Assembly (NCBI GenBank): GCA_008632985.1
Contig: QPGO01000122.1
Span: 186,001-249,225 of the forward strand
Length of the DNA: 63,225 bases
Reading direction: 5' to 3'
DNA from: Psammoneis japonica
Lineage: Eukaryota
Shown piece after piece: positions 2,487 through 39,595 of this stretch; the stretch's first letter is position 1, and each line of letters begins with the position of its first letter. The position numbers were made by a program, and so were the translations under genes. The notes under the pieces were generated by a model. It saw only the letters and a program-made list of their open reading frames with translations. It was not told where the DNA came from and did not search any database.

Positions 2487-3861
2487 GGTGGCAAGAAATA
2501 CTAAGATTCATTCAACAAGCAAGCCCTGGTCACGGTCAACACAAAAGGATGAGGCAATGACACCCGCCCTCCGCCCTCGGCATGTTGTGAGTTGTGAGCG
2601 ATGGGTTTCGTGATTCGTTTTCTTTTTAATTTGTGAGGCACGCGGGCATGTGCTCCGAGCGAGCAACGCATACCCTACGCGACGTAAATCCACCAGCACC
2701 CGAAAAGGTAATGCTGTAACCAGAAATAAAGGTGTAGATGTCGCTTGCCTTGTACATACGAACTTCCTGAGAGGATGCTGTGATAAAAACACAACGGATT
2801 AAACGGATTTTTCGCTCAGTCGTGCTGGCGCAATTTTGTGCTTTTTCACAACTTTCCTCGCACCACCATGTCGGCAGCGATTCCAAGAGCCGCATCGATG
2901 TTGTTGTCTTCGCCATTGTGACAGATTCACCATGGCAGGTGATGTCCTCCATTGTCCAATTGCACCATTGATTTCATTCATGTGCTTGCTGTCACCTCTG
3001 CTTTTTCTGCTGCAGCAATTTTGCCACAGTTGCGACAAGGCTGCTGTGGCGTGTTGTTGCGGCTGGTGCTTGAGACATTGTGGCTTTGAGCCTTGCTTTG
3101 AATTGTGGATGGGGAGGGGGGGGGTGGGGGGTTAAAAGAGATGCAGGCAAGCTTTTGATTCAGTGTCAAAGAAAGCCATGTTGTTGTCTCTTGCACCAGC
3201 ATTTGTTGCTCGTCCTCGTCTGCCCTCTCAGCACGTTTCGTGTGACACCAGCTTGGCACTCTGCTGCACACCTTTTCTGTCTTTGCACTCTTCTGTTGCA
3301 TCAGAGCCAATTGAGAGTGCCATTGTTGGCATGGCAGCATTGCAGCATTGCTTTTCACTCAGACACAGGTGTCGGGAGCACTGCGGCTGCAGGATCACAT
3401 CAGAGCGCGAAACACAGTGATCCTGACCACCCTTCTTGTGGGTAATTTTTAACACCATTGCATGTGTAAATATAAAGGCATCCTTTTGAGAGAGTTGTGT
3501 AGAACGTGATTTTTTATTGTGTGTCACAGTGTGCCATTTTTCACCATGGGACCCCTCCTTTGCCTGTGGGACCCCTCCCTCAACTGTCAGAATTCCGTCA
3601 CTTTTTACCTTTTGAAAGTGATGTTCACAACGTTTTGGTTAACAACAAATTGATGCTAATCACTGCGTTGCATTGGTTTAAGAACCTTCCATTGCATGCG
3701 CTGGTTCCATTGTGTGCACTGGTTGGCAAACGAAAGGTCAGATCACAAACCAATGGTTCCCAAAACACTTCATTAAACCTTGTAACTGTTGGCACTGAAA
3801 CCCACTACATTGCTCATCCTCTTTCCATTGTCACACATTAACAAAAGCCTCCGCTACCTTT

Positions 3862-5086
3862 TCATGCCACAGCTCGCTCATCCTCTGCATCTGCACTTGC
3901 ATCGCCACCCGCATCACTTTCCTCCTCCTCTTCCTCGCTGTCCTCGTCTCCTCTGTTCTCATCTGTTGCCTCTTCCTCCTTCTCCTTGTTGTCACTTGAA
4001 AGCTCTGTCATTGCCTGTGTTCTTGCCTCCTCCACCGGCTTTTTCTTTCTTTTTGATCCCTTGCCTCTTTCGTCACTCTTCCTTTTCTTGCCTTCACTGT
4101 GCCATGTGTCGAACTGCATGCCCTCCTCACTGAACCTGTCTTTCTTTACTTCCGCCATCAGTTCGTTGAATCGCTTGATCCCTGCATCCTTCCAGGAGTC
4201 TCGTTGCCTTGACGGGTCCGTGTGCTTGGGTGTTGGTTCCAACTCTTCCTCATCTTCTTTGTTCAAACCTCCCCCTGCTGCAACAGTCTTGTCATGACGT
4301 GCCTTGTGCTCCCAACTCTTCCAGCAGTTTTCCAACATCAACAGCGCTAGAGCCTCGTCGCTCGCTGCAGCCAGACCGGTTGCCTTTGTCTCACCCGACT
4401 CTGCCTTCCTTCTCCATGTGGTGGTGCTCTTTGTGAATTTCAGGATGTTTTGTAGAACCAAGCATGTGCTTCCTTGTTCTTGCGCTTGTCCTCCACAATC
4501 GTTGTCACTGTCTCCTCCCCCCAAGTCGCCAGGAACAGCTCTTCCTCTTCCGTGTGATCGTTCTTCTTCCTCTTCTTGCTCTTCTTCCTACCTCCACCCT
4601 TTGCTGCCAGCTCCTTCTGACTGCGCATCTCCTCTGCTTCATTTCTGTCAACATGACTTCAGCAAATGAAGGTGCAGCTGTGTCAAGCACAACTGCACTC
4701 AACATGCCGTGCACCACAAAACACTTGCCAGCCGTTGCATTGTTCTTGATCACCTGAGTGACCGTGCTCCTTTTTGCACCAATTGCGTGCATGACGCACT
4801 TCTTTGCCCAGTCTTCCCACGCTCCTGCCCAGTCTCGCTTGCTGCAATTGCCTCCGGCTGTCTTTTTCCTGATGAGCCGTGACACTTTGCCACTGCTTGC
4901 CATGTCCGCCTTGACAAGGAATTTTGCCTTTGGGAAAAGTTCCTTCCGTGCCACCTCTTCTACCTCTCTCTTTGTAGACTGGTGATCCCCAGTGGCTCCC
5001 ACCCGCACCAACGCTGCGGCCAGCCTTGGGCTTGTTGGTTGATCTCCAGCCACCCCCGCAGTTTCTTTCTTCTTCTTCCTCGCCAT
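3862..5086 (-). pseudogene. Transposon accessory gene (SDEA-LL-LEN / W...GI.RFNEL motif protein), arm A copy
   Basis: ORFs 4505-5086, 4440-4628 and 3862-4524 join via an intron and/or frameshift: RKELFPKAKFL ... ASDEALALLMLENCWKSW ... SWKDAGIKRFNELMAEVKKDR, followed by an acidic tail. Nearly Tyr-free. Confidence 0.6.
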
Positions 5087-5576
5087 TGTTGCTAATTGTG
5101 GGTGGCTCCATGCCTTGTGTCCCTGGTCATTTTCGTCATTGGGAAATTTTCAAACCTCTCTTTAATGCCAAAAATCTCACAGTTGCCAACAATGATTCCT
5201 TTTTCTCAAATGCAACATGATGGAGAATCAACCAAATTTTTAAATGCACATGCAATTTGTTCATTTTACCACTCCTTGTCATCTCACGAAAATTTTGAAT
5301 CATTGCGAATTCTAGTTCAAACCTCTCTTTTGCTGCAATTTCGAAATCCACTTCCACAGTGTAAATTGCTTGCAAAAGCATTTTGTTCAAAACATCATTG
5401 TGAAACGTGTGCCTGTAAAAGTTGTTTTTACTGCAATGAACACACCCCTCACCTGCTTTGACGTTGTTCCGGTTTGCTGTTGGGGCCTGAGCACATCCAT
5501 CCTTTTTGGCGCCAAATCATTTTCTCTGGTCCAATTCGTCATCACCCTCTAACTTCGTAACTCGTAACCTGATGCA

Positions 5577-6701
5577 TCACCCGCTGTCGGAACAGTCAGT
5601 CATGTGGGTGAAAGCCCTCGTCTCTGCTCCGACCATTCTCACGAATTCGTCAACTTCAACGCGACGACGTCTCTCCACCCAATGCTTTTCCTTTCTCCTG
5701 CTTTGAAATTTCTCCCGCTCACCATCCTCCTTCCGGATGATGTCCAGCATCCATTCATTGACTGTCCCTGGAGACAACCTGAAGAACTCCATTTGCTCAC
5801 AGAACCAAAGTCTTTCATGGTTGTCTCGCATGATGTCACGCTGGAACCACTTCGCCAGTTTTAATGCATCGCAAACAATTCCCTTCTTGTCCATTGCAAG
5901 TCCGCATGTGCCTCCCCTTGCCGATGTTTCTCCCAACGGTCCGCAAGTGCCTGTCTCGTCCATGCCACAGGTCGGCATGCTGACGCTCGAATTCCGTCTC
6001 AATCTCAAAACGTCTCCCCTGTCAATGACCAGTTTTGCATCATCACACGCACCCGCTGCAAATTCATCCCTCAGCTCTTTCTCTCCTTCATTGTGCAGAG
6101 TGCTGTGGACACAGCAGATCCTTCCTTGCCTGTCTTGGTGAGTCGCAACGCAGCCCCAATGCTCCTGGCAATGGCGAGCATTGATCCCACGGTTGACGAC
6201 GCCATTCAACCAGTTCAGGTTGTTGTGAATTGAGATCATGCCTGTGCTTGCGTGCATGCACTCGATTGCTTCTGTGCTCCAATCACTCACATGTTTGTGC
6301 ACCCAAACCATGTGGTTGCACCTCTGCTTCCACAGTTCCCGCCACTTTTCTTGGATGTTCTCCTCATCAATCATGCGAAACAGGTCCATGGCGTCGCAGC
6401 GCAGGTGCGGGTTAACTGCATGTGTGCCGCTCTCAAATTCAAACAAAGCTGTGCCCGTGTCATCAGAATGCACCATCCTGCCTTGTGGCAAACTTTGCAT
6501 CAAACGATCCAATTCATCAAAAGCCGCCTCGCACTCCAATTCCATGATTTGTCGCCTTCCATCTGCCGTCATGATTGTCAAACTTTCCAATCTCCTCCAG
6601 CAGTCATTTGGCCAATGTGCCGTCAAGCGGTCATTTTGTGCAACAGCATTCATTGTTGATTGCAACGTTTGTGTCTGTTCCTGCAGTGGGTGTGGGTGCA
6701 C
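5577..6701 (-). pseudogene. Uncharacterised ~360-aa transposon-borne ORF, arm A copy
   Basis: 374-aa ORF (likely start MNAVAQND) with a frameshifted mirror copy at 20353-21458. No Tyr, excess His/Cys. Confidence 0.5.
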
Positions 6702-7016
6702 CCCTCCTGGACTTCTTGCTGCAAAGCATCACGGCTCATCACGTCACAACTCATTTTCTCCCTTCCGCAGAAAAACAACCTTTGCAATCAGTTGTTCATG
6801 CTCAAAGTTGTCAATGATCCCAATGCATTCGATTCATTCTCACCTGCCAATGTTTTCATTGATTGGAAGAACACAATGCACCCATGTTTTTGCACCAATT
6901 TGTGTCGTGTTTTCCTTCCTTGCTGCCTGAACTGTCTCACTTTTCACGAACTGAACCGGTGCTGCCATTTGAACACACATGTGTTTGGGTGGCCCACAAA
7001 CCTGCTGCAGCACCAA

Positions 7017-10000
7017 ATGGAAGGAAACGGTGGTTGGCAGGTTGGGGATTGTGTGGTGGCATGTCCCCGTTGCAAACGATCTTTCAAACGGATGCTCACC
7101 CATTTCCATCACCACCCGCAGTGTTTTTCATTTGCTCAAGAGATGTCCAACTTGTCGCATCGTGAGGCAGTCACAAACTGCCCAATGCCAGAGTTGTCAG
7201 TGAGGGTTGCGGCTAAAACTTCCAACGTCAGCAACAAATTCTCTCGCAGACGTGGGTCGGTTGATCTCGACATTTCCTCCTCATCAGATGACTCGTCACA
7301 GCCACGGCTGAGGCAGTCCAGACAAGGTGCGTCCGCAGCAAACATCAGGCTTGGGTCCACCAACAACGAAAATGACAGAAGCGATGAACCATGGTCACCA
7401 CCGTTTGATGATGACATTTCCGCTCTTGGGTCGCGATCCCATCGCAAGGAAATTCATGACATGTCCCTGGACTTGTCTTCCGAAGCCAGCTTGTCACCAG
7501 ATGACTTGTTTGATGCACTGCCAGATGTCACAATGGAGAGCTCCAAAGTTGCAAATCCTGACGAATCAAACAGCTCGGACAAAGATGATTCGCGGAGTGA
7601 AGACAGCTGATTGGGCAAGGTGCACCGCAGCCCAGCCGAAGACACGTTTGCGCGCATGCCATCTCTTGGCAACCTCAACGGTGCTTGTGCAGAGCTGTGT
7701 GAGCTCTTAGACGACTGCAGAGCACCGCTTCACCTGTGCGACAAGATCGCCAAGCTCATCGAAAGACACTGTGGCAGCACCTTCCATCTTGGAATGCAAA
7801 TCCCTCGCCGGACCAAACTGATGGAGAACCTGCACAAATCTTTTGCAGGTCCGGAATGCGAGATGATTCCAGTCAACCTAGAAAGTGTCAATGGGGAACG
7901 CGGTGAGACAACAGCAAGAGTTCCGCGATGGAATTTCAAAGATGTGTGGGAATCGTTCATGCTGGATGCTTGCACATGGGCCAACCCCAGCAATCTCGCC
8001 GACACTGCCGATCCATGTGGAATGCATGTCTCAAAGGGAAAGCACGACAAGTGTGTTTTGGCAGGAGAGTGGTGCAGAAGTGCGCATGCAGCCAGGGTCT
8101 TGGATCCTCTTAAAGAGTTCCTCGAATGTTTGATGATTTACGTTGACAAGACTGGGAAGACAGCCTCCATGTCGTCTTCCTGCGGAGAACCCGTCATGGT
8201 TACGTCGGCTCATGTTGCCTGCAACCAATGGCATGACAGAGTGAAGTGGCGTGTCCTTGGCCACATTCCCGACCTAGAAAAAATGTCCTCCTCCGCCGCC
8301 AAACAGCAATCTAATGCTCGAAAGTCGGAGAAGGGCCAAAGCATCCGGGATTGTCACAAGGTGTTGGCAACAATGCTCCAGCCTCTGCCAGACACAATGG
8401 AAAATGGTGGCTTTCGCTGCTGCGTTCGACGAGGTGATGAGACACGTTTCCTTCATGTCATTCCAACAATGATCCTAATCAACGGAGATGCGAAGAGTGG
8501 TGACTGCCTTGTGGGTGGGCATGACGCCAAGAACTGTCACCAACGTTGTTCCAGGTTTTGCGTGGCCGGATGCAATGAGCTTGATGACCCTTGGAAGGAG
8601 TGCGAACTGGTCAGGGCTGGTGACATTTTTCAGTCCAGAACCACGCAAATGATCTCAGTCTTGACAAGCAAGAAAGGAACCACTGGCTGCAGCAGCTTCA
8701 TTGCATGAAGCAGCACAATGTGCCCACCAACAGCTTGCTCAATGCAGATTTCGGAGAACAGCCATTCGGAGCAACCCTTTCCACGGCAAGCGACATGATG
8801 CACCTGTTTGAAAACGGAACTTTAAAAAGGGAGGTTGGTGTTTTTGTCGACAGCATGACAAACTCAGTGAGAAGTGAGGTCAACAGATTGGTGGAAAAAA
8901 TGTTTGGCAATCACCGATCCACTTGCAATTCTTTCTTGTGAACCAATTTCAAGGGCGGGGCCACATCACTCACCTGCCTCAACTCACATCATTGGGCGGG
9001 GATGGCCTTTGTTTTTTGTTTGTTGCTGCTGACAAAGGAAGGCAGAGATGTCTGCGAATCTTGCTTTCTCCAGGAAGACCAAGACAATCCCCCATTGCCG
9101 TCAGGGTGTGGGACACCTGGGTTCCGAACAAATCGCTGTCACACACCGGAAGAGTGCAACAATGGCAACGATCATCACTCCAATGACAGAACAGATGATC
9201 CGCACGAAACGGATGCAGACGACAATGTGGAACACCAACCGGACGAGTCCGAGGATGAAGGCAACAGCCACAATCAACGGAAAAGGAAAAAAAGAGAAAG
9301 CCCCTTAGTTGCAGTGTTGGGCAATGCATCCAGTTGCTGGAAGACCTGCTCACCTTCCATGCTTGGTGTCAACTCGGCAACCCACCGACCGACACAACTG
9401 ACCTGACCAAAATCTCAAAGAAAATTTGGTTGCTGGTGTCTCGTGTCGTACATTGCTCCCCCAGACACGAAGGGGCTGGGTGGAAGCTGCAGAAACTTCA
9501 CGAGCTTCTTCACCTTCCAATCTTTCTACATTGTTTGTGTCATGCCACGAACTTTGACTCTGGTCTTGGAGAATCTTTGCTTGAGGATTTTTTCAAATTG
9601 CCATCTGCCACGGCACAACAGTGCAGCTTTGACATCTTCCTGGGTCAGGTTGCGTCGCGCATGCAAGACCAAATGACGGTGCACCGTGCATTGTCGGCCA
9701 ACCCATGGATCACATCGAGAGTTGGACGAAAGGATGTTGCACATGGCAATGACAGTCACACACTGGGTGGCAGCACCTTGCCATCACCTGCAGTGCGACA
9801 AACAATGCAGTGAGCTTTCTCTGGCATGGAAAGCAAAAACAATGTCAGGTTCACCCGGTCCTGCTCCATTTCTTTCAAAAGAAGTGGAGGGAATGCGTTG
9901 GAGCAGGAGGTGACCTCACCGTCAACCTTGTTTGCAAAACCGAATTCCGCCACAAGAACAGGAAAGACACTTGCCGTGCACACCCAGACTGCAACAGCGA

Positions 10001-10412
10001 AGGACCGGTTCACGACTGGGCGAATGTCAACTTTGGCACAACTGGGGGGGAATTGTGCTTCCCGTCAAGACTTCACTGTTTCTTCCAAAGGGAAAGCAAC
10101 GGTGACTTGTGTGAGGTCGTTCACCCTTGCATGCACCAGCCTGACAAGCGCACCATGGTTGAACGAATGCAACACACCGACCTGGTCAGTCGCTGGCAAT
10201 TGGACCAAGTGAAGAACAACAACTTGTCCTCTGCTGAACAAACAGTGCACTCACCCAAGCTTTTCTTGGTGCCCATCGACGCTGTTGGCGACAAATTGTT
10301 GGTGCATGAGGAGCAACCTGGCATTGCTGAGACACACGACAGGACAAAGCATGTTTGGGTGGTTCAAGACCGCAGAAATGCATGGGGAGAGCTGTTTCAC
10401 AAAAGCAGGTGA
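7017..10412 (+). pseudogene. Plavaka-type (CACTA/EnSpm-related) transposase, disrupted, arm A copy
   Basis: N-terminal CxxC..H zinc-finger-like CPRCKRSFKRMLTHF, then motifs IYVDKTG..GEP, WRVLG[Y>H]IPDL, NGDAKSGD, SDMMHLFENG and KLQKLHELLHL..NFDSGLGE, split by stops and frameshifts across ORFs 6660-7610, 7611-8708, 8705-8941, 9334-9813 and 9810-10412. Confidence 0.72.
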
Positions 10413-10448
10413 AAAGCATGTGAGCATCCGACAACAGCAGCAGAAAAC

Positions 10449-13111
10449 TTAATCGGGACGACAAGGACAACAGAGACAACGTTCACTCACCTGCTTTGAC
10501 AATCCACTCACAAATCCGACTGGGAACCAGCACAGCAAACAACTCCTGGGCCATTTCCTCAACTCATCCCTCCAATCGGGAATTCTCCTCTCGAAGGACA
10601 GGAACGGGAACAGTTCCTTCTGGTTGTAATTTCCACACTCTCGCAGGAACTCCAGGACTGAATTGGCTTCTTCATGTGGTGGCGTTTCCCAAATTTCCTG
10701 TTCCGTGACTCCCAAATGTGATGCTTCCTGGTCAGATGGTTTTCCCAGCCAATCCACACGGCACTCCTCCACAATCTCCTGGGAAGCCTGGCAGAGCGTC
10801 ACCATTTCACATGCCATGTCCTGTGTCATGGCCTGCACCAGTGCGCACTCCAAAATGTCATCCAAATTGCACGCGGTTTGGGTCAGTGACCAAATGGTGC
10901 ACGGGATTATGACGCGGCACCTCTGGAGCTTTGGATGAAACAACGTTTCCATCACATCCCTTGGGTTTTCACCAAAGAAGCAATTTCCGAGTGTCGACTG
11001 CAGCCACTCCCCTTTTTGCATCCAGTGGTGGTCCATGCAGATCTGAACAAAGCCACTTTTCTTAAAATCAATCACTGTTCCAAACCGCGTCTTGACCCTT
11101 TGGGCAAAATTCTTGGCAGACATGTTGCAATTCAAGTGACAAGCGGGGCTGCCATCCTGTGGGGACACAGTGCATGCACAAACATTTGAGTTCGTGTGGA
11201 GATCCTGAACAACTTGACACCTTGCCTCATCTCTTCTTTGCTGAGTGGATCGGACAGCCTCCACGCCACGGTCCGAACATGTCTCATCCAATGTCAGGTT
11301 TCCGGCCATGACGGGCCTTGTCATGCAAAGCCACAGGACATTTGCACCTCCGTCTTGTCTGGGGATGACATGACAATGTGAAACAAAAGCACAGGAGGAG
11401 CCATGTTGCGGGTTAAGATTTGTGAAAAACATGACACCAAACAATTGCAGGAGTTCTTCGGCTGTTGACAGACTTGCGCAAAAATGGCATTCACATGTTT
11501 GTCCATGTCAAAATCTTGCACTTGTGAAAGGACCGGTGGCTCAGGTCGATCGTACGCGGTTGCATTGCTTGCATCATCTTCATCGGATTCTTGATCCTGC
11601 GACTGAAGGACAACAGAATCTGCTGTGACAATTGGAACGCGGCAGTCAGAATCAGGACACAAGCAGTCCTCCGACAACACAGACTCCTCCAAATCCAATG
11701 AACTTGGTTCTTTCTCCGCGTCAAGTCGACAATCCTCTGAAGACAATGAGCTAAGTTCATTGTTTGCGGCGAGTCTAGACTCCTCCGATGACAATGAGCT
11801 AAGTTCATTGTCCGCGGGCAGTCCATCAACAATGGAGAAAACACTGGCACCGTCGGATTGCACGGCTGATTCACACACAAATGTGCGCGATTCAGCATTG
11901 TCTTGTGATTGGCAAAGGTTGGGGTCGTCGTCAACACACTCCAAAATTTCACACTCGGTTGACCCATGTGGCTTGCGGAGACGCTGGCCAGAGGGAGAGA
12001 AGGCAAACAGGTCTTGTCCTGAACAGGGTCCTTGGAAAACACAGTGAAAAATGCAGGTGCAGCGATTGTCTGAATTCTCACAAAGTTTGTGCTCGGTTCC
12101 GTTCCAACCATGCTCTTTGGTTCCTGTTTCGGATGACATCCTTTGGTGCATGAGCGGCCTTTCTTCTGGTTGGACATGCCCCAGTTGTGCGGCAGCTCCC
12201 GAATTGAAGACAGGACAGATGATGTCGTTGAGTCTTGTGTGGTCTTTCACTGCGACACCTGCCAGCACCAGACATTGCAGCACCAACATGAGACAAATCT
12301 CACTGAAATCTGCTCCCCGGTCTGCCCAAGCATCACACGCTGCCTTGCACCGTTGTTCCATTAAGTTGGGACAGAACTCGTTGGTGTTGACATTGTTGTT
12401 TGTCCAGAGAAGCACAGCACAGATTTCTTCCACCATTGCGTCAACCAGGTCATTCGCGGTTCCGACGCAACAAGGGTCTAGAAATGCATCGCAAAATTTC
12501 TCGTGCGTCAAATTGGTGGGGCTGATCCCATCCACCTGTGGGTCACCGCATGGCACCCCAAATGTGTTCTGCAAGTGATCGGCAAAGTTGACAAGTGGGT
12601 CAGCACCTTCGCAACAAAGGTTGGGAAGATGCTTGTCCCCCACGCAGTAAAATCGGTGACATCCGGTGGGACAACCAGCATGGATCACCAAACGAATGAC
12701 TCGTTTTGGGTTGGGACCCGATCGGTGCACAATGTTCTTGAAACGGTGGATCACTGTGACTGGGGCAGACAAGTGGAAGTCCCTGACTGGGAAAGTCGTG
12801 AATTTGAGTCGATCCATGCACACCTCGACATGTGAAGAGTCGCCACCTCCACCAACAAGAACATTGTCCCACGGCCTGTTGTCGTCAAGGGAAAGATGCT
12901 TGAATGTGATGCTGGAAAGCGACACATCGGGGTGGGTGGGACCATCATGCTGCAAGTCCAAGTCTTTAAGTGCAAAATCAAGCTGAGCTCGATTGTGGTG
13001 CATGCGAGCAAGCATGGGCTTCATGTCGCACTGGTCGTCGCAGCATTCACCAATGGTCCTTCTGCTGTTGGCAACAACCTTGAAGGACCAGATGTCACCA
13101 AAGGCATCCAT
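10449..13111 (-). pseudogene. Large uncharacterised transposon-borne gene, 5'-truncated arm A copy
   Basis: ORFs 11321-13111 and 10449-11444 mirror 13894-16604. The 5' end is missing because the arm stops at 13134. Confidence 0.5.
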
Positions 13112-13515
13112 GGTGAAGAAGCAACCTGCAGCTGCACATCATTGACAAAGCCACCGACACTGATCGGGTGCTTCATCATTCCGCCGCCAACTTTCACCTG
13201 GCGGACAACTTGCGGGAAAACTGGCACACGTTCTCAAACAATGTGCCATTGTGTGATTCCGCCACCGCATCTCGTGTTCGAACCGAGTGCCCTCCTGACC
13301 ACGATCACTTCTCCGAGGAACTCTCCGTTGCCCGTCAGGCTAACTCTCTGTACAAAGGGCACTTCGGGTGCCTTCGTGTGTGCATTCCTGCCCTTCTTCT
13401 GTTTGTTTTGTTGAAGGGAGAGTCCGATTTGACACGTGACGGACCGGTTGCAGTTCAAAACGGCAAAGCACGCAGGACAAAGTTCGGTTGTGCTGGGAGA
13501 GCGTGTCACCCCAAG

Positions 13516-22235: not shown

Positions 22236-22239
22236 CTCC

Positions 22240-27852: not shown

Positions 27853-28801
27853 GGCAGACAAAAGTGGTGTCAGGGATGGGACAATCAATTCTGGTTGGGA
27901 AGCGAAGGTAGACTCGAAACTTGGGTGAGAATGGACTTGACTTGAAATGGACTTGACTTGAAATCTTGAACTGTCTTAAAATCAGAAGTCGCCGGGCTTT
28001 GTCATGCCGTTCGTTGTCAAGTGCTGAACTTCCTGTCCGGTCCGTAGAGTTGTGCCGGCACGTCCGAACCCGCAGCCAGTGGCGCTTTGGGTTGCTTGTG
28101 AGCGGAGCAGCGGGTTGTAAACCCCTGCAGGTGAGCTGACTAGAGGTGGACAAGACCCCCAAACCATTCTTGTTTTACATCGGTTGGATTTCCCGATCAG
28201 GCTGGCCAGTTGACGTAGGCGTCAGGTGCTGTGGACAAACAAACAAACGCGGGAAAGCACCCTCGCCCCAACGTAGGCTGTAATCACGGCCACCTGCTCT
28301 CACAGTCGTCCTCGTGGACCTAGTGGAACTGCAGAGCACCAGTGGTCCGGGGTGGATCAGGTGCAATGGACTCGGTGTGCTTGTAGAGTGGCAGCAAAAC
28401 GGCAGTCCGAAGAGTGGATAAAGGTTCTTGGCCGTGAAGACATGTGTGTGTGCACACACATGTCTTCAGCGACTAAGATCCTTGAATGTGTAGGGTTCTT
28501 GACCGTCAACCGAGGAACAGGCATGTCAAGGGATGTTGATCAAGGACAGACTTGGATGTGACCGTTGAACACAAGTCTTCAGCGATCAAAGGTGGTGCAA
28601 TCAATCCAGATGTCCAGCGGCAAGGAGACTTGACGGTGACGTTAACTTCCTGCCGATGCCCTGGTTTTGAATGCGCGTAGACTTGCCGATGCATGTAGAA
28701 CACACACGGAGGTCCACGCAGAATTGAAATGGCGTTGTTGGTAAATCAACGACGACGATGGCGGTTGCTCAATGGGTTGACAATGAGCAAGACTGTCAAT
28801 C

Positions 28802-29078
28802 TGTCAGAAATTGAAGGCAAATGGCAAGAATTCAAACAACAACTCCTTGCTGCTGTCTAAATGGCAGATGAGTCTCCGCTCAGAGACCGTCACAGGAGCC
28901 GAAAGACGTGCAAGTCGGCACAATCGGGCTGCTGTTGTTATTCTTGTGAGCCTTGTGGCTCGAAAGCAAACTACATCGCGCGTAAAACGCGCGGAACTAA
29001 AGCACACAAAACTGTGCACGGTAAACTAAACAGCGCGCGATGCTTCGCGCGCACCTAAATCCTGTTCAAATCCTGTCA
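28802..29078 (-). repeat. 5' LTR
   Basis: 277-bp copy of 21960-22235. Confidence 0.95.
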
Positions 29079-29090
29079 CAATTGGCGACA

Positions 29091-30309
29091 ATGGTGAGGA
29101 AGAAGAAGAAAGAAACTGCGGGGGTGGCTGGAGATCAACCAACAAGCCCAAGGCCAGCCGCAGCGTTGGTGCGGGTGGGAGCCACTGGGGATCACCAGTC
29201 TGTGGAGAGGCAGAAGAGGTGGCGCGGAAGGAACTTTTCCCAAAGGCAAAATTCCTTGTCAAGGCGGACATGGCAAGCAGTGGCAAAGTGTCGCGGCTCA
29301 TCAGGAAAAAGACAGCCGGAGGAAATTGCAGCAAGCGAGACTGGGCGGGAGCATGGGAAGACTGGGCAAAGAAGTGCGTCATGCATGCAATTAACGCAAA
29401 AAGGAGCACGGTCACTCAGGCGATCAAGAACAATGCAACGGCTGGCAAGTGTTTTGTGGTGCATGGCATGTTGAGTGCAGTTGCACTTGACACAGCTGCA
29501 CCTTCATTTGTTGAAGTCGTGTTGACAGAGAATGAAGCAGAGGAGATGCACAGTCAGAAGCCGGCAGCAAAGGGTGGAGGTGGGAAGAAGAGCAAGAAGA
29601 GGAAGAAGAATGATCGCATGGAAGAGGAAGAGCCATTCCTGGCGACTTGGGGGGAGGAGACTGTGACAACGATTGTGGAGGACAAGCGCAAGAACAAGGA
29701 AGCACATGCTTGGTTCTACGAAAACATCCTGAAATTCACAAAGAGCACCGCCACATGGAGAAGGAAGGCAGAGTCGGGTGAGACAAAGGCAACCGGTCTG
29801 GCTACAGTGAGCAACGAGGCTCCAGTGCTGTTGACATTGGAAAACTGCTGGAAGAGTTGGGAGCACAAGGCACGTCATGACAAGACTGTTGCAGCAGGGG
29901 GGGTTCGGACGAAGAAGATGAGGAAGAGTCGGAACCAACACCCAAGTGCACGGACCCGTTGAGGCAATGAGACTCGTGGAAAGATGCAGGGATCAAGCGA
30001 TTCAACAAACTGCTTGCGGCAGCAAAGAAAGACAGGTTGAGTGAAGAGGGCATGCAGTTCGACACATGGTGCAGCAAAGGCAAGAAAAGGAAGAGTGACG
30101 AAAGAGGCAAGGGATCAAAAAGAAAGAAAAAGCAGGTGGAGGAGGCAAGAACACAGGCAACGACAGAGCTTTCAAGTGATGACAAGGAGAAGGAGGAAGA
30201 GGTGACGGACGAGAACAGAGGAGACAAGGACAGTGACGAAGGGGAGGAGGACAGTGATGCGGAAAGTGATGCGAGTGCAGATGCAGATGGTGAGCGAGCT
30301 GCGGCATGA
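29091..30309 (+). pseudogene. Transposon accessory gene, arm B copy; the copia inserted about 12 bp upstream of its ATG
   Basis: MVRKKKKETAG.., RKELFPKAKFL.., SNEAPVLLTLENCWKSW.., acidic tail; mirror of 3862-5086. Confidence 0.6.
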
Positions 30310-32399
30310 AAAGGCAGCGGAGGCTTTTGTCAGTGTGACAATGGAAAGAGGACAAGCAATGTAGCAGGTTTCAATGTTGACAGTCACAAGGTTTGACAAA
30401 GTGTCAAAGGGATCATTGTTTTATGATCTAACCTTTCGTTTGACAACCAGTGCATGCAACAGAACCAGTGCATGCAACAGAAGGTTCTCTTGACCAATGT
30501 GACGCAATGATTGGCATTAATTTGTTGTCAACCAAAACGTTGTGAACATTGCTTTCAAAAGGTAAAAAGTGACGGAATTCTGACAGTCAAGGGAGGGGTC
30601 CCACAGGCAAAGGAGGGGTCCCATGGTGAAAAATGTAACACTGTGACACATGACAAGAAATCACGTTCTACACAACTCACTCAACATGAAACTGTTGCAT
30701 TTACACCTGCAATGGCATTAAAAATTGCCCACAAGAAGGGTGGTCAGGATCACTGTGTTTTGCGCTCTGATGGGGGGGGCAAAAAAAAAGGGTGCAAGCA
30801 AGCTTTTGTTTTGGTGCCAAAGCAAGTCTCACATTGTTGTGTGTCACATCATCATTTGTTGCTCACTGAATTCTCTGCAACACCTGCCCTTTCCTCCAAG
30901 TGCACCTCAAGTGACCACAGCCTGGCCAGCAAGCTTTGCAACATGCTTTTTGCCACACTTCTCACTGCCACACAAAGATGTGTGGCATCTTTTTTCTCAA
31001 GGTGGCACAGCTGATGCCTGGCATCTTCAACAGCACCCAACCTTCATTCTTGTGCCATGGCCAAGTGTCTTTGTCACATTCTTGTCCTCATGCACAATGT
31101 CTTCTTTCCACACAGGGCTCTTTTTCCCTTTCTTTGGCTGGCGGGTCTTTCTGTGCACGTGCGAGGTTGTTTTTGCAGAAATGGCACTCTCCACAACTGC
31201 AAGCAGGTGTGTTTGCCTTCTGTCAGACCCACCTTGGCTTTGTCACAGGGCCACTTGTGTCCACCCAAAATCTGTGACAGTGCCCATTCCAAGATTGTCC
31301 ATCATCCATTTGAACTTCCATCATGTTGGCTTGGTGAATTTGCAAAAGGGGTGCTCCACTTTTGTGGCTTTTTTGTTGCAATTTTCATCACATGAGTCAC
31401 CCCCCAGTCACTCTGTCTGGGCTGCAACAGCACATGATGCACAGGTGGCATCAATTTTCCTTCAAGGCAATTGACCAGTCAGCAGTCTCCCTGCTGTCTT
31501 CTCTGTCAACTGCAAGCATAAACTTGGCACAGTCAGGAATGACAGCATGTGGGGGAGACAGAAACTTGGCTGTGCTCATTGTTGTCCCATCTTGTGGTTG
31601 TCCAGCAAAAACCGAGCATGTTTTCTGTCTTTCCAAGTTGTTGCCCCCACATGACAAACCCAGCTGCACCACTCCTGTTTCCTTTCACACCCTTCTGAGC
31701 CCAGCACAACTGCCCATGAGGCATCTTTGACAAAGCCTCTGCCAACAGTTTGTGGGAGAGGAGAAGTCACTGGCTGCCTTGGAGACTTTTTTCAACTTCT
31801 TCACAGTGTTGTGTGCCAGTTTCATGAGCTCTTCAGATCAAAGAAAATGGTCACTTGATGTTTGTACCCTTCGCCTGACAAGAGGACCCAGCTTGGGATC
31901 CACAGCCAATGACCTTGGAACAACTTGAGAGGGGAGGTGTCATCATGGTCTTTGCCAGGGCGTTCTCATTGTGTGCAGAGACACCCAGTTTCTGTGCAAC
32001 ACAAGGCCCGCACTTTCATGCCATGTTTGATTGTTTTGGCTCCAGGCATGCACTGAGCAAACTTTGCCATGCTTCCATCTGCAACATGTTTCCATGCTCA
32101 ACCAGAAGACCACTGATCAATGATCAACATGTTCACAATTGTGCTGATTGTTTTCACAACTGCCAAATTTACTTCAGCGCCAATTTTGTCTCATGATGGT
32201 TTTAACTCACAAACAATTGAAGGTGTTTTGCTCATTGAAAGTCACCTGTGTGGCTTGTTTTAACCACATTTTAAACTTGTTAAGAACAGCTGCATTTGTT
32301 CTCTTTTCCTTCCATTTCTCAGCTTGCTGCCTTTGTGGTTTGCTCTGTTTCTGCTGCACATTTGTCCTTTTTTCCCACTGGACACTGCTGCAACATCTG

Positions 32400-33540
32400 C
32401 CAACAACAATGGCACACCCCTGCCACAATCCACTCTGTCCTGGTTGGACACAATGTCTGACAACAATGACAAGCAAGCTCTCCACCAACCTTTTCAAAGG
32501 CATCCCCAGTGTTCTTCCATTTTGGCCTGAGCAATGCACCTCCCTCCCCTGACCACTCCCTGAGCAACAAATGCCACCTCATGCTCTTTTGATGCATCAG
32601 GATCTCTCAGTCATTCCTTCAACTCAAGCACCAATGGATTCATGTTCCTGTCCCTTCTTGATGGTGATCCATCACACTCATCTGGGGCGTTCTGCAATCC
32701 CCAGGTTGTCCAGTCTTGTCAGTGGTCACATGAGGAGAAGTGCTGTCCCAAAATGCTGAATGAGTGCGTTTGTGGCTCTCTTGACACCAGAGATTGGTGA
32801 GAGCAAGCAAGCTGAGAATCAAATGTTCTCTGGCTGAGCTGGGCAATGATGTTCCTTCCAGGTCACACTTTGTTTGTCCTGTTGTGTGTTGTTTGACAAT
32901 TTCACTCTCTGTGACAACACAGGTCATCTCCAAGCACAACCCATTCTTGTGACATTGGGCAATTTGAGTGACAAGGGTTGCCACAGCCACTCCCTTTGGT
33001 CAACACTGGGGATGACTCCACCACACCTGAAGACCAGCAATGACAAAACCACAGACCGGTGGTCAAAGCTGAGACAGGAGACATGCACTGAGTTCTGCCA
33101 CAGCACCTTGCAGGAGATGTTTGTTGAGTTGCTTCACCTTTTGAAGCACAAGACTGGTTTTCCCATTGTTGTTCCATCTCTTGGGTTTGTCCATGTTCAA
33201 TCTCAATTGTGCATGACAATCGGCAATGTGAAAGGTCATGACAACATGGCTTGTCACTGTGACTCCCATTCTGGCAACATGTCTCAGATGAATCAGGGCT
33301 GCAACACACCAGAGTGCTTTTGTGATGATTCAATGTTTGGCTGCAATTTGGCAGGCTGCCACAATCACTGTCAAGGAAAGGCACAATGGCAATGTGACCA
33401 CAGCTCATGAATGGTGCAAGGACATTTCACAGAACTTGGCTTGTCCTGTTTTTTGGGATGTCCCTCATGGCAGAGAAACAAGGCAGCAACTGCCCTTCCA
33501 TCACATTTGAGAAATGTTTCAGAGTTGCCACACAAATGCC
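32400..33540 (+). pseudogene. Heavily decayed Plavaka-type transposase of a second family; extent approximate
   Basis: ORF 32874-33410 reads TLCDNTGHLQAQPILVTLGNL...WSTLGMTP...EFCHSTL...IGNVKGHDNMAC, the same motif order as the arm transposases (D.T..G...P...TLGN; W..LG..P; GD..G.D). Confidence 0.6.
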
Positions 33541-33876
33541 CAGAAGGCAAAGTGATCAGAAGATGCCAACAAGAACTCCATTTAAGAACAAAGTTGCCAA
33601 CCCAACTGATCTGTCTGGTCTCAAGAGCATCTTGGTCTGTTGCTTGAAACAGTTGCTGCAATGAAATGCGTGCTTTTAAAGGAAGATGAAAGCCAGGAGC
33701 CACTGAAGAGTCCAGAAGGCAAAGTGATCAGAAGATGCCAAGAACTCCATTTAAGAGCAAAGTCACTGACCAGACTCATCTGCCTGGCCAAGAGCATCCC
33801 AGTCTGTTGCTTGCAACACTGCTGCAATGAAAGGCATGCTTTCAAAGGAAGATGAAAGCCTGGAGCCACTGGAGAG
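33540..33876. repeat. ~172-bp direct tandem duplication
   Basis: ccagaaggcaaagtgatcagaagatgccaa starts at 33540 and 33712; both units end in gatgaaagcc.ggagccactg. Confidence 0.85.
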
Positions 33877-35735
33877 GAGTCACTTCATCCACCTGATGTT
33901 CGTGTTTTTGGGATTGGATGTGGCGCTGTCCCTCTCCTCACACAAGGCTTCAGAAATGCATTCTCAAGCATCTCAAATTGTTCCAAAAATCTGGGTGAGT
34001 GTCCAGTGCTCAGCATGCACACATCAAACACTCAACAATTGCCAGTGAGGAGATTTGCTGCAGGCATGTTTGCTCTCCTGTGAAAAGTGAACCCACTTTG
34101 AATGTCCAACATCACCACACCACAGTTTTGTGCTTTTCACAACATTGTTGCCCAACCAGGGCTCACTTGTCACTTTGCTGGTCACTGCATTTGGCAAACA
34201 TTTCATCCTCAAACTCTGAATCCTCTGAAACAAACAACTCTGACTCACATTCCCAGTGGATCTCATCATCCAACCCAACACAATGCATGCCAAAGTGTTT
34301 TTCCTGGTGATTCTTGTCCTTCTGCCATGTTCTTGTTTTGACAGCCTGCATTTCTTGCACGCAACCAAGATCAAATGAAGTGGAGGGGGAGAGGGTTTCA
34401 TGTTTTGTGCCTGCCTTTTGCATCTGTCCACACACCTCCCTCCTCAAAAAGAGTGCTGGTTTGGGCATCTCTGATGAGTGGTGCTCACATGTCACTTGCA
34501 AAACTTCAGATGGGAGTGCAGGGACAATGTGCCTTGAGCTTGGTGCGCCAGCAGGACAAAGATTTCTGGATTGAAACAATCATGCAACACACATGGCTGT
34601 TCCACTTCCACTGCCACATTGAAGTTGATTGTTTGGAGTTGTTCTGCATCACATCTGGTCAAGTCACCATTGTCAGGCAGCCAGCACACCACTCTCTGTG
34701 TGCTTTTCAACCACTTTCAGATTGCCCACATGAGCAAACATTGGAAGGTGTTGTCTGATGGGAAGTGCAAAAAAAAAAGAGCTTCCTGACCCCTCTTCAT
34801 CTCAGAGGAATGAACGCAAGCCCCAACAATGTTGCCAAAATCATTTGCCTGCACACTCATGCCTCATCCACTCACTCACACTTCTGAATGAACTGAAAGT
34901 CTTGTGCACACATGTCCATGTCTGACAAAAAAAATGCAACTGCACTTCTGTCTCTGTCTGTCAGAGCCATCTTGTCATGAAAAGCATCAACAAGAAATGT
35001 TGTCACATCATGGCACTTGCCAACAGGCACATGTTTGGTCTTGCCAATCCCCAAACTCACCACATGGATTGCAGACACACCTCTGTTGCCACCGCTGCTG
35101 TTGCTGCATCAACCAGGTGCAGAAGCTAAAAAGTGAGCATGAGACCCGCAACTCATGATCATCCACTGCAACATTGTCTGTCCTGCAAAAACCACCTCAC
35201 ACCCTGATGTTGCAGCAACAGGGTCATGCCTGGAACAAGGACAAATCAATGCACTGCAAATCACGCATGGTCCCTTTCAAGTCCTGAGGATGTGGAGCAT
35301 CCCAAGCAAACATTGAGCCCAGCTCTGGATGACCAAAATGCTCAGTCATTTGTGCCACTGCAAACAGCAGCAAGCCAGCAAGAAGAAAACTGGTGCACTG
35401 GCAACCCAGCCTTCATGACTGTCCACAGCAATGCACGCACACTCCTCAAGTGTCACTCTTGTCCCCTCCTTCTATGACCAGCACATGCAGTTTTGTGTCT
35501 CTCACCCTCTCCAGGAATTCTTTGTGATGGCACACAGGGAGAGTGCAACAAAACAATTTCTTCCATGTGTTGCTGACCCACGAGACCTGAAACAAGCGCG
35601 CCCTGCAACAAACGCACAGAACATCAGAGCCGCAACAACCTTTTTGCACACACTTGCAGAGCTGCACCACGCTGTGGATTTTCTCTCTTGGTTTCATGTC
35701 TTGCCTGAAAGCAAGCCACTGAGAGCCAAGGAAGA

Positions 35736-36332
35736 GTGGCTGCACAGTTTGGGGGAAGTCTCCAGCCAGCTGCTGGCTGAAAAATGTCTGCTCGTCAGTG
35801 CGTTTGGGGGTTTTGCCATCAGAATTTTTACGTGCGCAAAAGACAACGAGTCTGTACAGCGTTCACCAAAACCCCCTAACGCACAGATTGACAGACTCTT
35901 TCAGCACAAATTCTGCACAAGATTCTTCAGCCAGCTAGCAGCTTTCAAAAGTCTGCCCGACGTAGACGCCCGTAGACTTGCACTGGTTTTTCATCAAAAG
36001 TCTGCCCGTTCGGAACGTAGCTTCTACACGATTTTTGTACTAGTGTATCTCATGAACCGTGGGCTTTTCTACGTGATTTTTTGTGTAGAATTCGTACGAC
36101 GGAAATCAAACCGAACATCTCACGAGCCAGCGTTCTTTTTGGGATTTGTTGCGTACACAGTGTACCAGATTCTCGTATGTAGATAGAAAGGTAGAAAAGA
36201 CAAACAAGCATGCTGGGAACTTTAGTGAAATTCTACGTAATCGGGCAGACTTTTGTCGCGGGCAGACTTTTGGGAGCTGCCAGCCAGCAGCTGGCTGGAG
36301 ACTTCCCCCAAGTTGTGGCACTGTGCAGCCAC
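35736..36332. repeat. Nested inverted-repeat structure around a TA/CG-retaining island
   Basis: Perfect 30-bp IR at 35750-35779 and 36281-36310; aaaagtctgcccg x2 facing cgggcagactttt x2; inner ~18-bp IR at ~35799-35816 and ~35867-35884. Confidence 0.8.
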
Positions 36333-39300
36333 ACAGCAAGGAGCAACAATCTGCCTGAGCAATCTTTTAGAGCCATCAATGATTTGCACAAAATGTGTGC
36401 TGTGCAATGCATTGGCTTTGAAACTGAGCAAGGAAGGAGAAGGGACAGTGGAGAGAGGCATCAAAGAATTGCACTGCTTGTTTTTGTGCACCTGTCTGAC
36501 ACTTGATGCACAGTGTGCGCCAATGGCATGGACTTGGCAGGGGTGCTGCTGTCTGCCATGGTGTCACTCCAACAGTGCTGATGTTCCCACTCAGGCAAAA
36601 AAGTGAGCTGCTCAGCAGCTCACCACTTTGTTTGCATGAAACTCATGACTGATGAAACAAAATGGCGGTGGCACCTCCACACATGTGACCTGTTGACTGG
36701 GGCAAAAAGCCATCACTCTCAATGCTCATTGCCCCCAGAAACACCAATTGAGCACATGACATTGATGCCATCAAATCCCCATTCTTGTCATTGCTGGCAG
36801 AGATTTTTTTGTCCTGCAGAGGGCATCAGAGAGATGGAGCAGCGCAAGAAAAAAAAATTCCAAGCCATCCAGTGGTTCAATCTGTGGAACCAGTGCAAAT
36901 CATGACATGGTTTGTGGAGCATGTGTGCAGAAATGTGTGGTGTGCAGAATTTGCACCAGAGGCAAACAACAACTGGTCAGCAGTTGGCAGAAAAATGAGG
37001 CTCACGATGAAGCAACATGACAGCAGAGCGCCGCACTTTCAAGAACCAAGTGAACTTCCAAAGCAAAGTGTGCACTGCATCAAGCAGACATTGCCACATC
37101 TGCTGATGCAAAGTTTTCACAGATGCCTTGTCATTTGGTTGCATTTCCACCCACTTCTGTTGGGTCATTTTTGGTGCACCACAAAGAACTGCCTGCTTCT
37201 GCAATGGCTCGGGGCAAAAAATGGTTTTCAATCATCTGGATCTAAGCCAGCCAATCCATTGCTGCTTGTGTGGGGGAGTGGGTCACAGGGGCCATGGTGG
37301 CAATGTAAAGTTGATGCATCAACATGAAGTGCAATGTCAGTTGGAGGTGTTGTGGTGCAAGTTGTGCGCAAGTCTGCAGCATGCAGAAGTTGTGCCATGT
37401 GCTGCACGTGACATCTGTCGAACAAAAACAAGAAATGCAGCAACAAGGCAGTCAACAAATCAAGCTCATTGCACATCAAAGACACCAGCAATGAGGTGAT
37501 CAATGAGAAGAGGCTGCAGCAATTTTGATGATTTGGTTTCAGTCAGAGGGGCCTTGCTTCCTGCAAGGAAGCCATGCTCATGACCTCACAATGACTCCAG
37601 CATGTTGCAGGAGTGACCTCCACACTGAGACTTTTTTTTTGTCATTGAGTTTGTTCAGCAACCCAACAAATGCTGTTGTTCACAGAATCCAGTCATCCAA
37701 CAGAGTTGTGTGAGATGTCCAAACCCCAAGCAAGCAACGCACCATGGTTTGCACACAAAATCACATGGCAAGCCACCTCTGCCAAGGTTTTGGTTGCCAA
37801 GCAAGTGACCTTTTGCTTGTGGTGGGCTAAAAAATCATCCAGAGTGATGGCTTCTGCTGCAACAGCAATGGGGCTCCCCATGCAAGGGCCAGTTGTGAGC
37901 TGACCACCATGATTGCACAGAGGTGGCAGCTCATGTCTGTCACAACTGTGGCTTGTTTGCTTTCATCATTTTTGCAGCTGCCCACAAGCCTTGCACTTTC
38001 GCTGTTGCTGCTGAGAGCTCCGCATCAAGTCTTTTGTTTTGTGCAGCTTTTTTGCACTCATTGACATTTTTCCACTGCATCTGTTGTGCCCCATCATCCT
38101 TCCCCCCACCACTGCCACACCACAGGAAGAACATTGCTGAAGATTGACGATTGATGATTGATGATGCGCCCTGACTCAATGTTCATGCTTGCACATGTGT
38201 TGGACATCTGAGAAATGCAAAAATGGGAAACAACTTCTTCTTGCCTTTTTTCCACTTTTGTTGGAGGTTTTCAATCTAAATTTGTCACTTTTTCATTTTT
38301 GCAAGGGCAGTGCAACTGTCAGTGTCTTGATTTCATGTGGACAAAAAAGTGCAGCAGCACACTGCGGCTCAAGTTTGGCCCACTCCTGCTGCACCACATT
38401 GCAAAGTCAAGTTCTTTCTCTCTTTTTCTCATTGTTGACATGCTCTTGTTGCTCAGATGCTGGAACAGTTGCGTGTCACAGGCTGAGCCTGCTGTGCTCA
38501 GCACTTGGTTGAGAGTCAGCTGTGCAGCTGGCACCAGCTTCACCCTGAATTTTGTGCAAAAGAAAAAAAAGAGCACAGAGTGGGCAGCAGAAGAGAGCTC
38601 CTCTCCATCTCTTTTTGGGAAAGGAGAGCAGTGGGTGGTTTCAAGAAGCAAAGTGAGAAAGGAGAAGGAGAGCCTCTCTGTGTCTGTCTCCCAGGCTTCT
38701 CTGAAAATGGCACTCCTTTCCCTTTTCAGCAGACAGTGCCTGTGACTTTCCCCACACCATGCACCAACAACAGCCACAGCAGTGCAGAGCCAGTTGATGG
38801 GATGAGCAGCCAAAGCTGTGCTGTCATGCTCTCCAGCTTTGCAGCCACAAAGCCCCATTGTGACTGCCAGTTGTTCTCACAATTTGAACAAGATCCTCCT
38901 GCCCTGCAGTGCTCTCTCTGTCTGAGACTGTCAAAGCTGAGCTTGTCCAAGACAAAGCCACACAGACCTGCATTTTTGAAAAGCTTGTTGCCACTCTGAG
39001 CACATCCCTGGTGTGCACAGTGGAGCCCACAGCACCAGCACCTTTTTCCCGGACAATGACGCCCTTCTCTCATCGTGTCAACTCTCTGGAAGATGTCGCT
39101 GTGTGAGAGCGAGCAGCTCAGAGAGTTGTGTGTTCTCAGATTTTCAGCCCCTCCCCCCACATGGGCTTTCACCATGTCACCATCAAAAGGGGGTGAAGAA
39201 ACCTGCATGATGCATGTGAGGTCATGTGCGCCTGGACGGAGGGGCAAGAGAGAGTTCTTTCACAACCAGAGCCAGTGGCACAAGCTGGGGGGCATGCTGT

Positions 39301-39595
39301 GTGAGATTTTCTCCAGATCTCTCCAGTGCTCTAGAGATGAGAGCGAACATGTGTCCAGCGCACTGGCTCTGAATGAGTGCAAAACAGCCAATCTGCCTAA
39401 TGCAATGGCCATTTTGGCAGCACACATGTTTCGAATTTCGAGCTGCACTTGTCTGTTTGTTCGCCTGTCCGACATTTCGCGCAGATGACCCATCTCTCCG
39501 ACTCACTCGACTAAGAAACTTTGTCACCGCGGTTCCGCAATGGCGTCGTGGTGACCATAGTTTTGACGGCAACGACAGCAACCTATTGCAACATC

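Follow-up and report, generated by a model that had tools for sequence, protein, structure and literature searches.

Of the systems known to disable mobile or invading DNA by mutating it in place, fungal RIP (repeat-induced point mutation) is homology-dependent and premeiotic. The closest described relative of the process treated here comes from mutation-accumulation lines of the chlorarachniophyte Bigelowiella natans, in which 231 of 302 nuclear mutations fell into an integrated nucleocytoplasmic large DNA virus (NCLDV) and a virophage, and all but one of these 231 were A>G or T>C changes, every one of them at TpA (Mettrop et al., bioRxiv 10.64898/2026.01.13.699255). According to the part of this preprint available to us, a subset of B. 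natans coding sequences with low TpA is enriched for DDE and reverse transcriptase (RT) domains, and its authors propose an ADAT2-like deaminase; the main text, in that same part, names neither diatoms nor flanking preferences (bioRxiv 10.64898/2026.01.13.699255). Here we report a footprint of this spectrum, TpA to TpG or CpA, in transposon DNA of Psammoneis japonica. Our scope is one window of one contig (GenBank assembly GCA_008632985.1, QPGO01000122.1, positions 186,001 to 249,225; 63,225 nucleotides, counted below from the first letter), inside which islands of elements were compared with blocks of genes. A preliminary description of this DNA had proposed repeat-targeted loss of TpA and knew of no described system with such a spectrum. 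The latter view cannot be upheld, as TpA>TpG/CpA hypermutation of viral inserts in B. natans is on record in the 2026 preprint cited above, as far as its available part goes. A full-text literature search gave no further paper with this spectrum, and diatom transposon papers checked by term search made no mention of it.

TpA observed/expected ratios (O/E), profiled in 1-kb bins with block edges taken from 200-base bins, do not exceed 0.38 anywhere in the 36 bins that run from 3001 to 38001, and in 27 of these they do not exceed 0.13, as opposed to 0.48-0.76 in the ten host-gene bins from 40001 to 49001. Pooled over the repeat-derived blocks (46,803 bases), TA occurs 325 times (6.9 per kb, O/E 0.11) compared with 551 times (37.2 per kb, O/E 0.54) in the gene blocks (14,802 bases). 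At the density of genes, a count this low has a Poisson probability that machine precision cannot tell from 0. CA and TG are in excess (O/E 1.60 and 1.56 in repeat-derived DNA versus 1.17 and 1.15 in genes) while CpG stands at 0.60 versus 1.03, and loss of CpG accounts for only part of the TG/CA excess. The edges of depletion are sharp (about 200-400 bp) and lie at ~2800, ~39400-39800, ~50400, ~58200 and ~60400; beyond the coordinates first described, TA is likewise depleted at ~50400-58200 and, to a lesser degree, at 60400-62800. A stretch announced as free of TA at ~32283-33582 is indeed so (32281-33583, 1302 bases), and longer TA-free runs were found at 33752-35127 and 53748-55058. Tyr makes up 0.2-1.0% of residues in six element open reading frames (ORFs) and 1.2-5.2% in eight host ORFs. 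So the preliminary picture of an island nearly devoid of TA and rich in TG/CA, set among host genes with normal TA and Tyr content, agrees with our counts, as does its confinement to mobile or repeat-derived DNA, with genes 200-400 bp away being spared. The depleted parts of the window are these:

2800-39400, no strand assigned: the main TpA-depleted, TG/CA-enriched island, repeat-derived (TpA O/E 0.00-0.38 over 36 bins; edges from 200-base bins)
3398-13134, plus strand: copy 1 of an unclassified repeat of ~9.7 kb, forming an inverted pair with copy 2 (blastn self-hits)
13871-30772, minus strand: copy 2 of the ~9.7-kb repeat, split by a nested copia element (self-hits; CAATT flanks the copia)
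21955-29079, minus strand: the nested Ty1/copia long terminal repeat (LTR) retrotransposon, with LTRs at ~21955-22236 and 28797-29079 and a 5-bp target duplication
22096-27975, minus strand: copia polyprotein frame with one in-frame TGA (23158-23160; Pfam RVT_2, E = 3.9e-25)
30773-39400, no strand assigned: an old, mostly single-copy remnant in which TpA and CpG are nearly gone (bin composition; contig depth in read run X1)
50400-58200, no strand assigned: the second depleted block (1-kb and 200-base bins)
60400-62800, no strand assigned: the third depleted block, weaker (TpA O/E 0.20-0.33)

In blastn, the two copies of the inverted repeat align as an 8-kb arm (arm B, 5094-13134 against 21959-13871, 94.5% identity) and a 1.7-kb arm (arm A, 3398-5100 against 30772-29077, 90.6% identity). 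Along with TA, the elements have lost two of the three stop codons: TAA and TAG occur 2.6 and 2.0 times per kb per strand in elements compared with 7.7 and 8.6 in genes, while TGA, at ~21 per kb per strand, is unchanged between the two. Long overlapping ORFs of up to 778 residues occur on both strands (24975-27311, minus; 25417-27306, plus; others in 2800-39400), and because they owe their length to the loss of TAA and TAG, these two-strand ORFs of the island are not to be taken as genes.

The direction of change was read from the copia element, a label that stands on RVT_2, the LTRs and the 5-bp target duplication. A region of 480 residues of its RT was searched against 1.84 billion representative proteins and the best 150 were used. 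Three Tyr-poor proteins (P0156, P0164, P0173) were set aside, and the 147 Tyr-normal homologues that were kept gave 131 conserved columns (consensus at least 70%), 120 of them non-Tyr and 11 Tyr. While the copia RT of the window retains 117 of the 120 non-Tyr columns, it retains 2 of the 11 Tyr columns and reads His (CAC/CAT) in five and Cys (TGC/TGT) in four of the others (Fisher p = 4.9e-10). HVDD, ALHGL, NAHL and ATCGSE, the altered motifs named in the preliminary description, do occur in the copia ORFs in place of their Tyr forms. Related copia loci from metagenomes have TpA O/E of 0.47-1.02 in 66 of 69 cases and, of the 61 that cover at least three Tyr columns, 58 carry at most one His/Cys. 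Since the losses fall mainly on Tyr columns, and there read CAY or TGY, and since most relatives keep both TA and Tyr, this comparison of homologues shows TAY as the ancestral state and TA to CA or TG as the change, that is, A:T>G:C on either strand, which is the direction (A>G at TpA) that had been proposed.

The three exceptional loci (L035, L045, L050) have the lowest TpA O/E of all (0.31, 0.27, 0.13). At the covered Tyr columns the three proteins set aside (P0156, P0164, P0173) read His/Cys in 9 of 9, 7 of 9 and 5 of 5, in patterns unlike that of the window. The same footprint is thus present in 3 of 69 environmental copia loci and 3 of 150 database proteins, so that the process occurs in other records as well.

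The relatives also speak to the idea that the element lineages themselves avoid TA, be it through inherited composition or through selection for escape from, say, a TA-targeting nuclease or RNA decay. It is true that UpA/TpA is under-represented in most genomes and that the host genes here reach an O/E of 0.54. However, the TpA and Tyr content of the environmental relatives (66/69 and 58/61, see above), the destruction of conserved catalytic Tyr residues, the inclusion of non-coding LTRs and the different derivatives that sister copies hold of one and the same site (see below) contradict this explanation, to which we attach almost no probability.

Evidence for when the change takes place comes from sequences that started out as one. 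At integration, the LTRs at either end of an insertion should match each other in full; those of the copia element, which is flanked on both sides by an intact CAATT target duplication, are now 94% identical and differ at 16 of 280 aligned columns, all 16 being transitions. Four CA-vs-TG sites and six TA-vs-(CA or TG) sites make up 14 of these 16 differences. All 20 LTR CpGs are unchanged in both LTRs, and because there is no CpG decay in the LTRs, their CA-vs-TG sites must descend from TA. Arm B holds 71 CA-vs-TG sites, with every other class of double difference at 4 or fewer; from its CpGs (257 shared, 118 lost in one copy) only ~6.8 such sites would be expected (p = 1e-46). A further 23 lie in the 1.7 kb of arm A. 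These arm sites cannot be polarised by protein, because the 623-residue ORF of the inverted repeat found no homologue in a protein search, and their presumed TA ancestry draws on the CpG-decay expectation and on analogy with the LTRs. Within the copia family, a codon for a conserved Tyr (23371-23373) reads CAT in the window and TGT in 8098-8202 of a contig depth of 8365 for other family members, and CAT and TGT are two different one-step derivatives of TAT. Taken together, the LTRs, arms and family contigs show a change that occurs in place, after integration and independently in each copy. An active master copy already bearing His/Cys, the case that the preliminary description took as fatal to its proposal, does not fit with sister copies that hold different derivatives of TA.

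The arms also differ in how evenly they are hit: the copies of arm A are unequally mutated, with 6 TA shared, 17 found only in copy 1 and 6 only in copy 2, in contrast to those of arm B, which hold 10 and 12 TA of their own.

A context-driven error of sequencing, base-calling or assembly should not make one copy read CA just where its partner reads TG. What an artefact has in its favour is that all reads come from three runs of one sample and one study, possibly the very source of the assembly. Yet contigs of ~61x reproduce the TA-poor sequence, those of run X1 differing from the window by one letter over 30743-32439 and by six letters and one gap over 36287-40000 (word depth ~61), and the footprint appears in three unrelated metagenome contigs and three database proteins as well. 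Hence we consider an artefact exceedingly improbable. Support from raw reads, on which the preliminary description had also staked its proposal, holds insofar as the X1 contigs reproduce the TA-poor single-copy part, albeit not as independent confirmation should the sample be the one that was assembled. Run X2, labelled 'DNA?', behaves like RNA (a spliced contig is present); its contigs leave most element bins uncovered, which is not usable as a sign of silence.

Where TA faces another dinucleotide, its partners are TG in 12 and CA in 8 cases in arm B, CA in 11 and TG in 10 in arm A, and three of each in the LTRs; His and Cys stand at 5 : 4 in the Tyr columns. These counts show both strands to be equally affected, and CA-vs-TG sites fell into 34 runs where 36.4 were expected, which does not suggest processive events on one strand. 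This symmetry bears on an ADAR-like editing of UA in element RNA that is fixed by reverse transcription into new copies. It would draw strength from the preference of ADAR for U 5' of the A that it edits, which is mentioned in the available part of the B. natans preprint (bioRxiv 10.64898/2026.01.13.699255), and from the fact that our best-verified element is a retrotransposon. RNA editing is heritable, though, only as A>G on the sense strand, yet T>C (His, 5) is about as frequent as A>G (Cys, 4). Moreover, TA-derived sites set the two LTRs of a single insertion apart in either direction, and the unclassified non-copia repeat copies and the single-copy remnant are even more depleted than the copia. 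Strand symmetry and post-insertion divergence, as read from the aligned copies, contradict an origin in RNA, which in our estimate is a very slim prospect.

The process is sensitive to what flanks TpA. Relative to genes, trinucleotides of elements fall to 0.04 for ATA/TAT, 0.19 for GTA/TAC, 0.23 for CTA/TAG and 0.34 for TAA/TTA, with the remaining 28 classes all at 0.58 or above; among tetranucleotides, ATAT falls to 0.025 and TTAA stays at 1.15. These ratios show an order, in terms of composition, in which TAT is hit most strongly, TAC and TAG about alike and TAA least, TTAA being refractory. The same flank order is seen in L035, L045 and L050 (ATAT 0.07, TTAA 0.76), where counts are small. 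AA, AT, GA and CA dinucleotides are not depleted in elements (AA O/E 1.24 versus 1.16 in genes) and TC has an O/E of 1.08 there.

Two further candidates were tried and rejected: GC-biased gene conversion or another general AT>GC pressure, since AA, AT and TT are not depleted, and avoidance of transposons that target TTAA, since TTAA is the one context kept.

As for speed, arm B has 28 TA shared between its copies, 22 in single and 71 in double difference, from which we estimate that each copy lost ~80% of its TA. Over the same 8035 columns CpG loss is 19%, and ~90 of 362 differences are of other kinds. The young copia has mostly lost TA with its CpG intact (TpA O/E 0.13-0.38; CpG O/E 0.86-0.97) while in the oldest part both are gone. 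Counted in this way, the process is shown to outpace background substitution by far and CpG decay several-fold, and because the young copia lost TA without CpG decay, it is not secondary to repair of 5-methylcytosine (5mC). Both speed and context have a bearing on an explanation that does without a dedicated editor and invokes an error-prone polymerase (e.g. of the Pol-eta type, WA>WG) or escape from mismatch repair in silenced chromatin. In its support, depletion has sharp edges and keeps to DNA that is apparently silent, and A>G at WA motifs is a known trait of Pol eta. AA, a WA motif too, is not depleted, however, only trinucleotides that contain TA fall below 0.58, and near-saturation (~80% TA loss per copy) with TTAA untouched would be hard to reach; nor does the TA loss of the young copia, free of CpG decay, sit well with it. 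To our minds, such an error process is improbable, if less so than an origin in RNA.

The main rival is one in which the thymine of TpA is hit. A TET/JBP-type dioxygenase would make 5-hydroxymethyluracil (5hmU) or 5-formyluracil (5fU) at TpA in elements as a silencing mark, and mispairing with G would yield T>C, so that TA would decay as a side effect of an epigenetic mark, in the way that 5mC leads to the decay of CpG. TpA being palindromic, the footprint would be the same as that of a hit on adenine. In dinoflagellates, TET/JBP homologues make 5hmU that is enriched at repeats, their inhibition de-represses transposons and, by older work, T is replaced preferentially in TA and TC, as reported in the available part of the source (PMC11572971). 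On the other side of the balance, TC is not depleted in our elements (O/E 1.08) and, of 45 single changes at TA, 41 are transitions that yield TG or CA, while transversions too would be expected from oxidised T and its repair. Opposite A, 5hmU is not known as strongly mutagenic. We rate thymine oxidation as rather unlikely.

That a targeted TpA process exists at all is, in our judgement, very probable. For its mechanism we tentatively favour adenine deamination in DNA, which we regard as quite possible, because the transitions are so pure (41/45) and because of the precedent in B. natans. In this model, an enzyme brought to DNA that is silenced or foreign would deaminate adenine to hypoxanthine, the latter would pair with C and replication would then fix A>G. 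Repetition, silencing marks or foreignness may each serve as trigger. As for effects, Tyr codons would turn into those for His or Cys, including that of the catalytic YVDD of RT (HVDD), and TAA and TAG stops would disappear without new ones arising, while TA-rich signals (TATA boxes, AATAAA, GTAAGT) would probably be destroyed, so that elements may be disabled through missense and regulatory decay. Activity of ADAT2 on DNA in amphioxus is cited in the B. natans preprint, as far as its available part tells (bioRxiv 10.64898/2026.01.13.699255).

Several points weigh against this model. Agreement with run X1 adds no independent support if X1 is the sample behind the assembly. As TpA is palindromic, sequence cannot separate a hit on A from one on T; by the same reasoning, the TG outcome would be set by the 3' flank and the CA outcome by the 5' flank under both models. 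The flank order we see (T, then C about equal to G, then A) departs from the T-A-C typical of TadA, a preference that the preliminary description had brought forward for a candidate deaminase and that our order of TAT, then TAC and TAG, then TAA does not bear out. It is also unlike the 3'-G preference of ADAR, and we know of no natural eukaryotic enzyme that deaminates adenine in double-stranded DNA.

Turning to the elements themselves, what was called two Plavaka families, a CACTA-like and a P-like element could not be recognised as such: no transposase domain was found in Pfam or the PDB, and of the element classes named in advance copia is the sole one to be verified. Among the ORFs of the window that were scanned, non-copia element ORFs have no Pfam match except for a SAP domain, and two element ORFs queried against the PDB gave no sequence match. 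Heavy mutation may conceal transposase domains in these ORFs. Even the integrase region of the copia does not score with the Pfam rve model at E up to 1, probably due to its mutation load. Summed contig depth over the copia (21955-29079) exceeds that of the single-copy flank by a factor of ~1000-2000; this is no measure of copy number yet usable as a hint of a very large family.

In the remnant at 30773-39400 most bins have TpA O/E of 0.00-0.13 and CpG O/E of 0.06-0.37 (the 36001 bin has a TpA O/E of 0.26), with values of 0.00-0.07 and 0.06-0.10 in bins 31001-34001. Contig depth (X1 word depth ~61-76) marks 36.7-39.3 kb, where depletion is greatest, as single-copy, but this stretch may be an old, diverged repeat. 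Although it matches no protein family, the remnant presumably derives from mobile elements. On top of TA loss, CpG O/E is only 0.04-0.14 at 31001-35000, 37001-39000 and 54001-55000, which suggests that cytosines in the oldest parts have long been heavily methylated. Short direct repeats, tandem or dispersed and 83-87% identical, lie inside depleted blocks (56319-56936, 33527-33876). The second block and the spared neighbourhood contain the following:

51135-55109, minus strand: an ORF of 1324 residues with 0.2% Tyr, within the second depleted block (Pfam: SAP domain only)
39596-50000, no strand assigned: spared host genes for an alpha/beta hydrolase, PARG, an adenosine deaminase and a GH99-like protein with ricin lectin domain (TpA O/E 0.48-0.76; Pfam)
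58400-60400, minus strand: a spared 2-kb gene for a GCN5-type histone acetyltransferase with bromodomain, flanked by the second and third depleted blocks (TpA O/E 0.51-0.52; bromodomain E = 1.6e-19)

The 1324-residue ORF, which looks continuous and takes in the 54-55 kb bin, probably combines elements that differ in age. Homologues of the GCN5-type protein reach 85% identity, and the four that carry an organism name among the best 120 are all from diatoms (75-79%), namely Asterio..., Conticribra weissflogii, Cyclotella cryptica (CCRYP) and an MMETSP entry; by these four, the host is probably a diatom and not a fungus, and a fungal framing finds no support. The adenosine deaminase gene (PF00962, E = 6e-60; 45616-46656, plus strand) lies 6 kb from the island and adjoins the PARG gene (43369-44853, minus strand). 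Its best matches are 57-64% identical, with no near-identical protein in the collection and none such from B. natans, so that the host is also distinct from the B. natans that was sequenced. PF00962 acts on free nucleosides or nucleotides, we see no tie between this gene and DNA editing, and we treat its proximity as coincidence. An X2 contig joins 39853 to 39944 and thereby delimits a 90-nt GT..AG intron (39854-39943) in the gene that comes first on the right-hand side of the island.

If our reading holds, the window adds a second lineage and the first transposon case of TpA-specific A:T>G:C hypermutation aimed at invading DNA, with a footprint near saturation. Two such distant hosts permit a search for candidate genes by presence and absence, and a natural DNA adenine editor specific for TpA would be of interest to the base-editing field. 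It is conceivable, though we hold it with less confidence than deamination as such, that diatoms and chlorarachniophytes share an old defence arm against mobile and viral DNA, consisting either of a TpA adenine editor that acts on double-stranded DNA or of a heritable, symmetric mark at TpA that decays to TG/CA; if true, this arm would parallel 5mC or RIP, with the opposite mutational direction. On the practical side, dating of insertions by LTR divergence would be strongly inflated, given that 14 of 16 LTR differences stem from the TpA process, gene finding will meet long false ORFs on both strands through the loss of TAA and TAG, and homology searches miss element proteins, seeing that among copia and other element domains only RT scored in Pfam, bar SAP. 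The process also illustrates that elements can possibly be disabled without creating stop codons.

How does this compare with known systems? With RIP it shares in-place DNA hypermutation of repeated or mobile DNA in one dinucleotide context, irreversible disabling and a skewed dinucleotide content; unlike it, RIP changes C:G to T:A mainly at CpA and so makes TpA and stops, whereas here TpA, TAA and TAG are removed. In place of the raised TpA and lowered CpA/TpG that mark RIP, we find TpA at 0.11, CA/TG at 1.6 and Tyr turned into His or Cys. Decay of 5mC resembles our process in turning a palindromic dinucleotide of silenced elements into TG/CA, and decay of this type also operates here, as seen from CpG O/E of 0.04-0.14 in the oldest parts and from 110 CpG-vs-(TG or CA) sites between the arm-B copies. 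It cannot remove TpA, however, and is the slower of the two (19% versus ~80% in arm B) with none in the LTRs (0/20). That neither RIP nor 5mC deamination can explain the loss of TA, as the preliminary description had argued, is in keeping with a copia CpG O/E of 0.86-0.97 and 20 of 20 LTR CpGs intact. APOBEC3, which acts on retroelement cDNA, and ADAR, which acts on repeat RNA, are likewise deaminases used against mobile elements, but their substrates are single-stranded cDNA or RNA and leave a one-strand footprint, in contrast to the symmetric, post-insertion changes seen here, which extend to DNA other than retroelements. Dinoflagellate 5hmU, made by TET/JBP enzymes, is a modification from the stramenopile-alveolate-Rhizaria (SAR) lineage, with enrichment on transposons and, according to older reports, a preference for T in TpA; it is a modification, however, and in the part of the source available not reported as a mutation process, and TpC, a target there, is not depleted here (PMC11572971).

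Closest by far is B. natans, for which our comparison draws on the available part of the preprint. Both cases have exclusively A:T>G:C transitions, at TpA only and on both strands, restricted to invading DNA while the remaining genome is normal, the long-term result being little TpA and much CpA plus TpG; the window displays transitions (all 16 LTR differences, and TG or CA in 41 of 45 single changes at TA), restriction to TpA and confinement with normal host DNA nearby. The two differ in host (P. japonica versus a chlorarachniophyte from a different supergroup branch) and in target, which is copia and other repeats here, with no viral insert recognised, and NCLDV or virophage there. They also differ in that new mutations were seen arising at a raised rate, in only some of the lines of B. 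natans, whereas here the rate is inferred from divergence of LTRs and copies. The footprint here is far stronger, with O/E of 0.11 down to 0.00 as compared with 0.45 in their NCLDV region, and follows a hierarchy of flanks (TAT strongest, TTAA spared), none being given in their main text as available. What P. japonica contributes to the B. natans precedent, then, is a distant second lineage, transposons as targets and a hierarchy of flanking bases.

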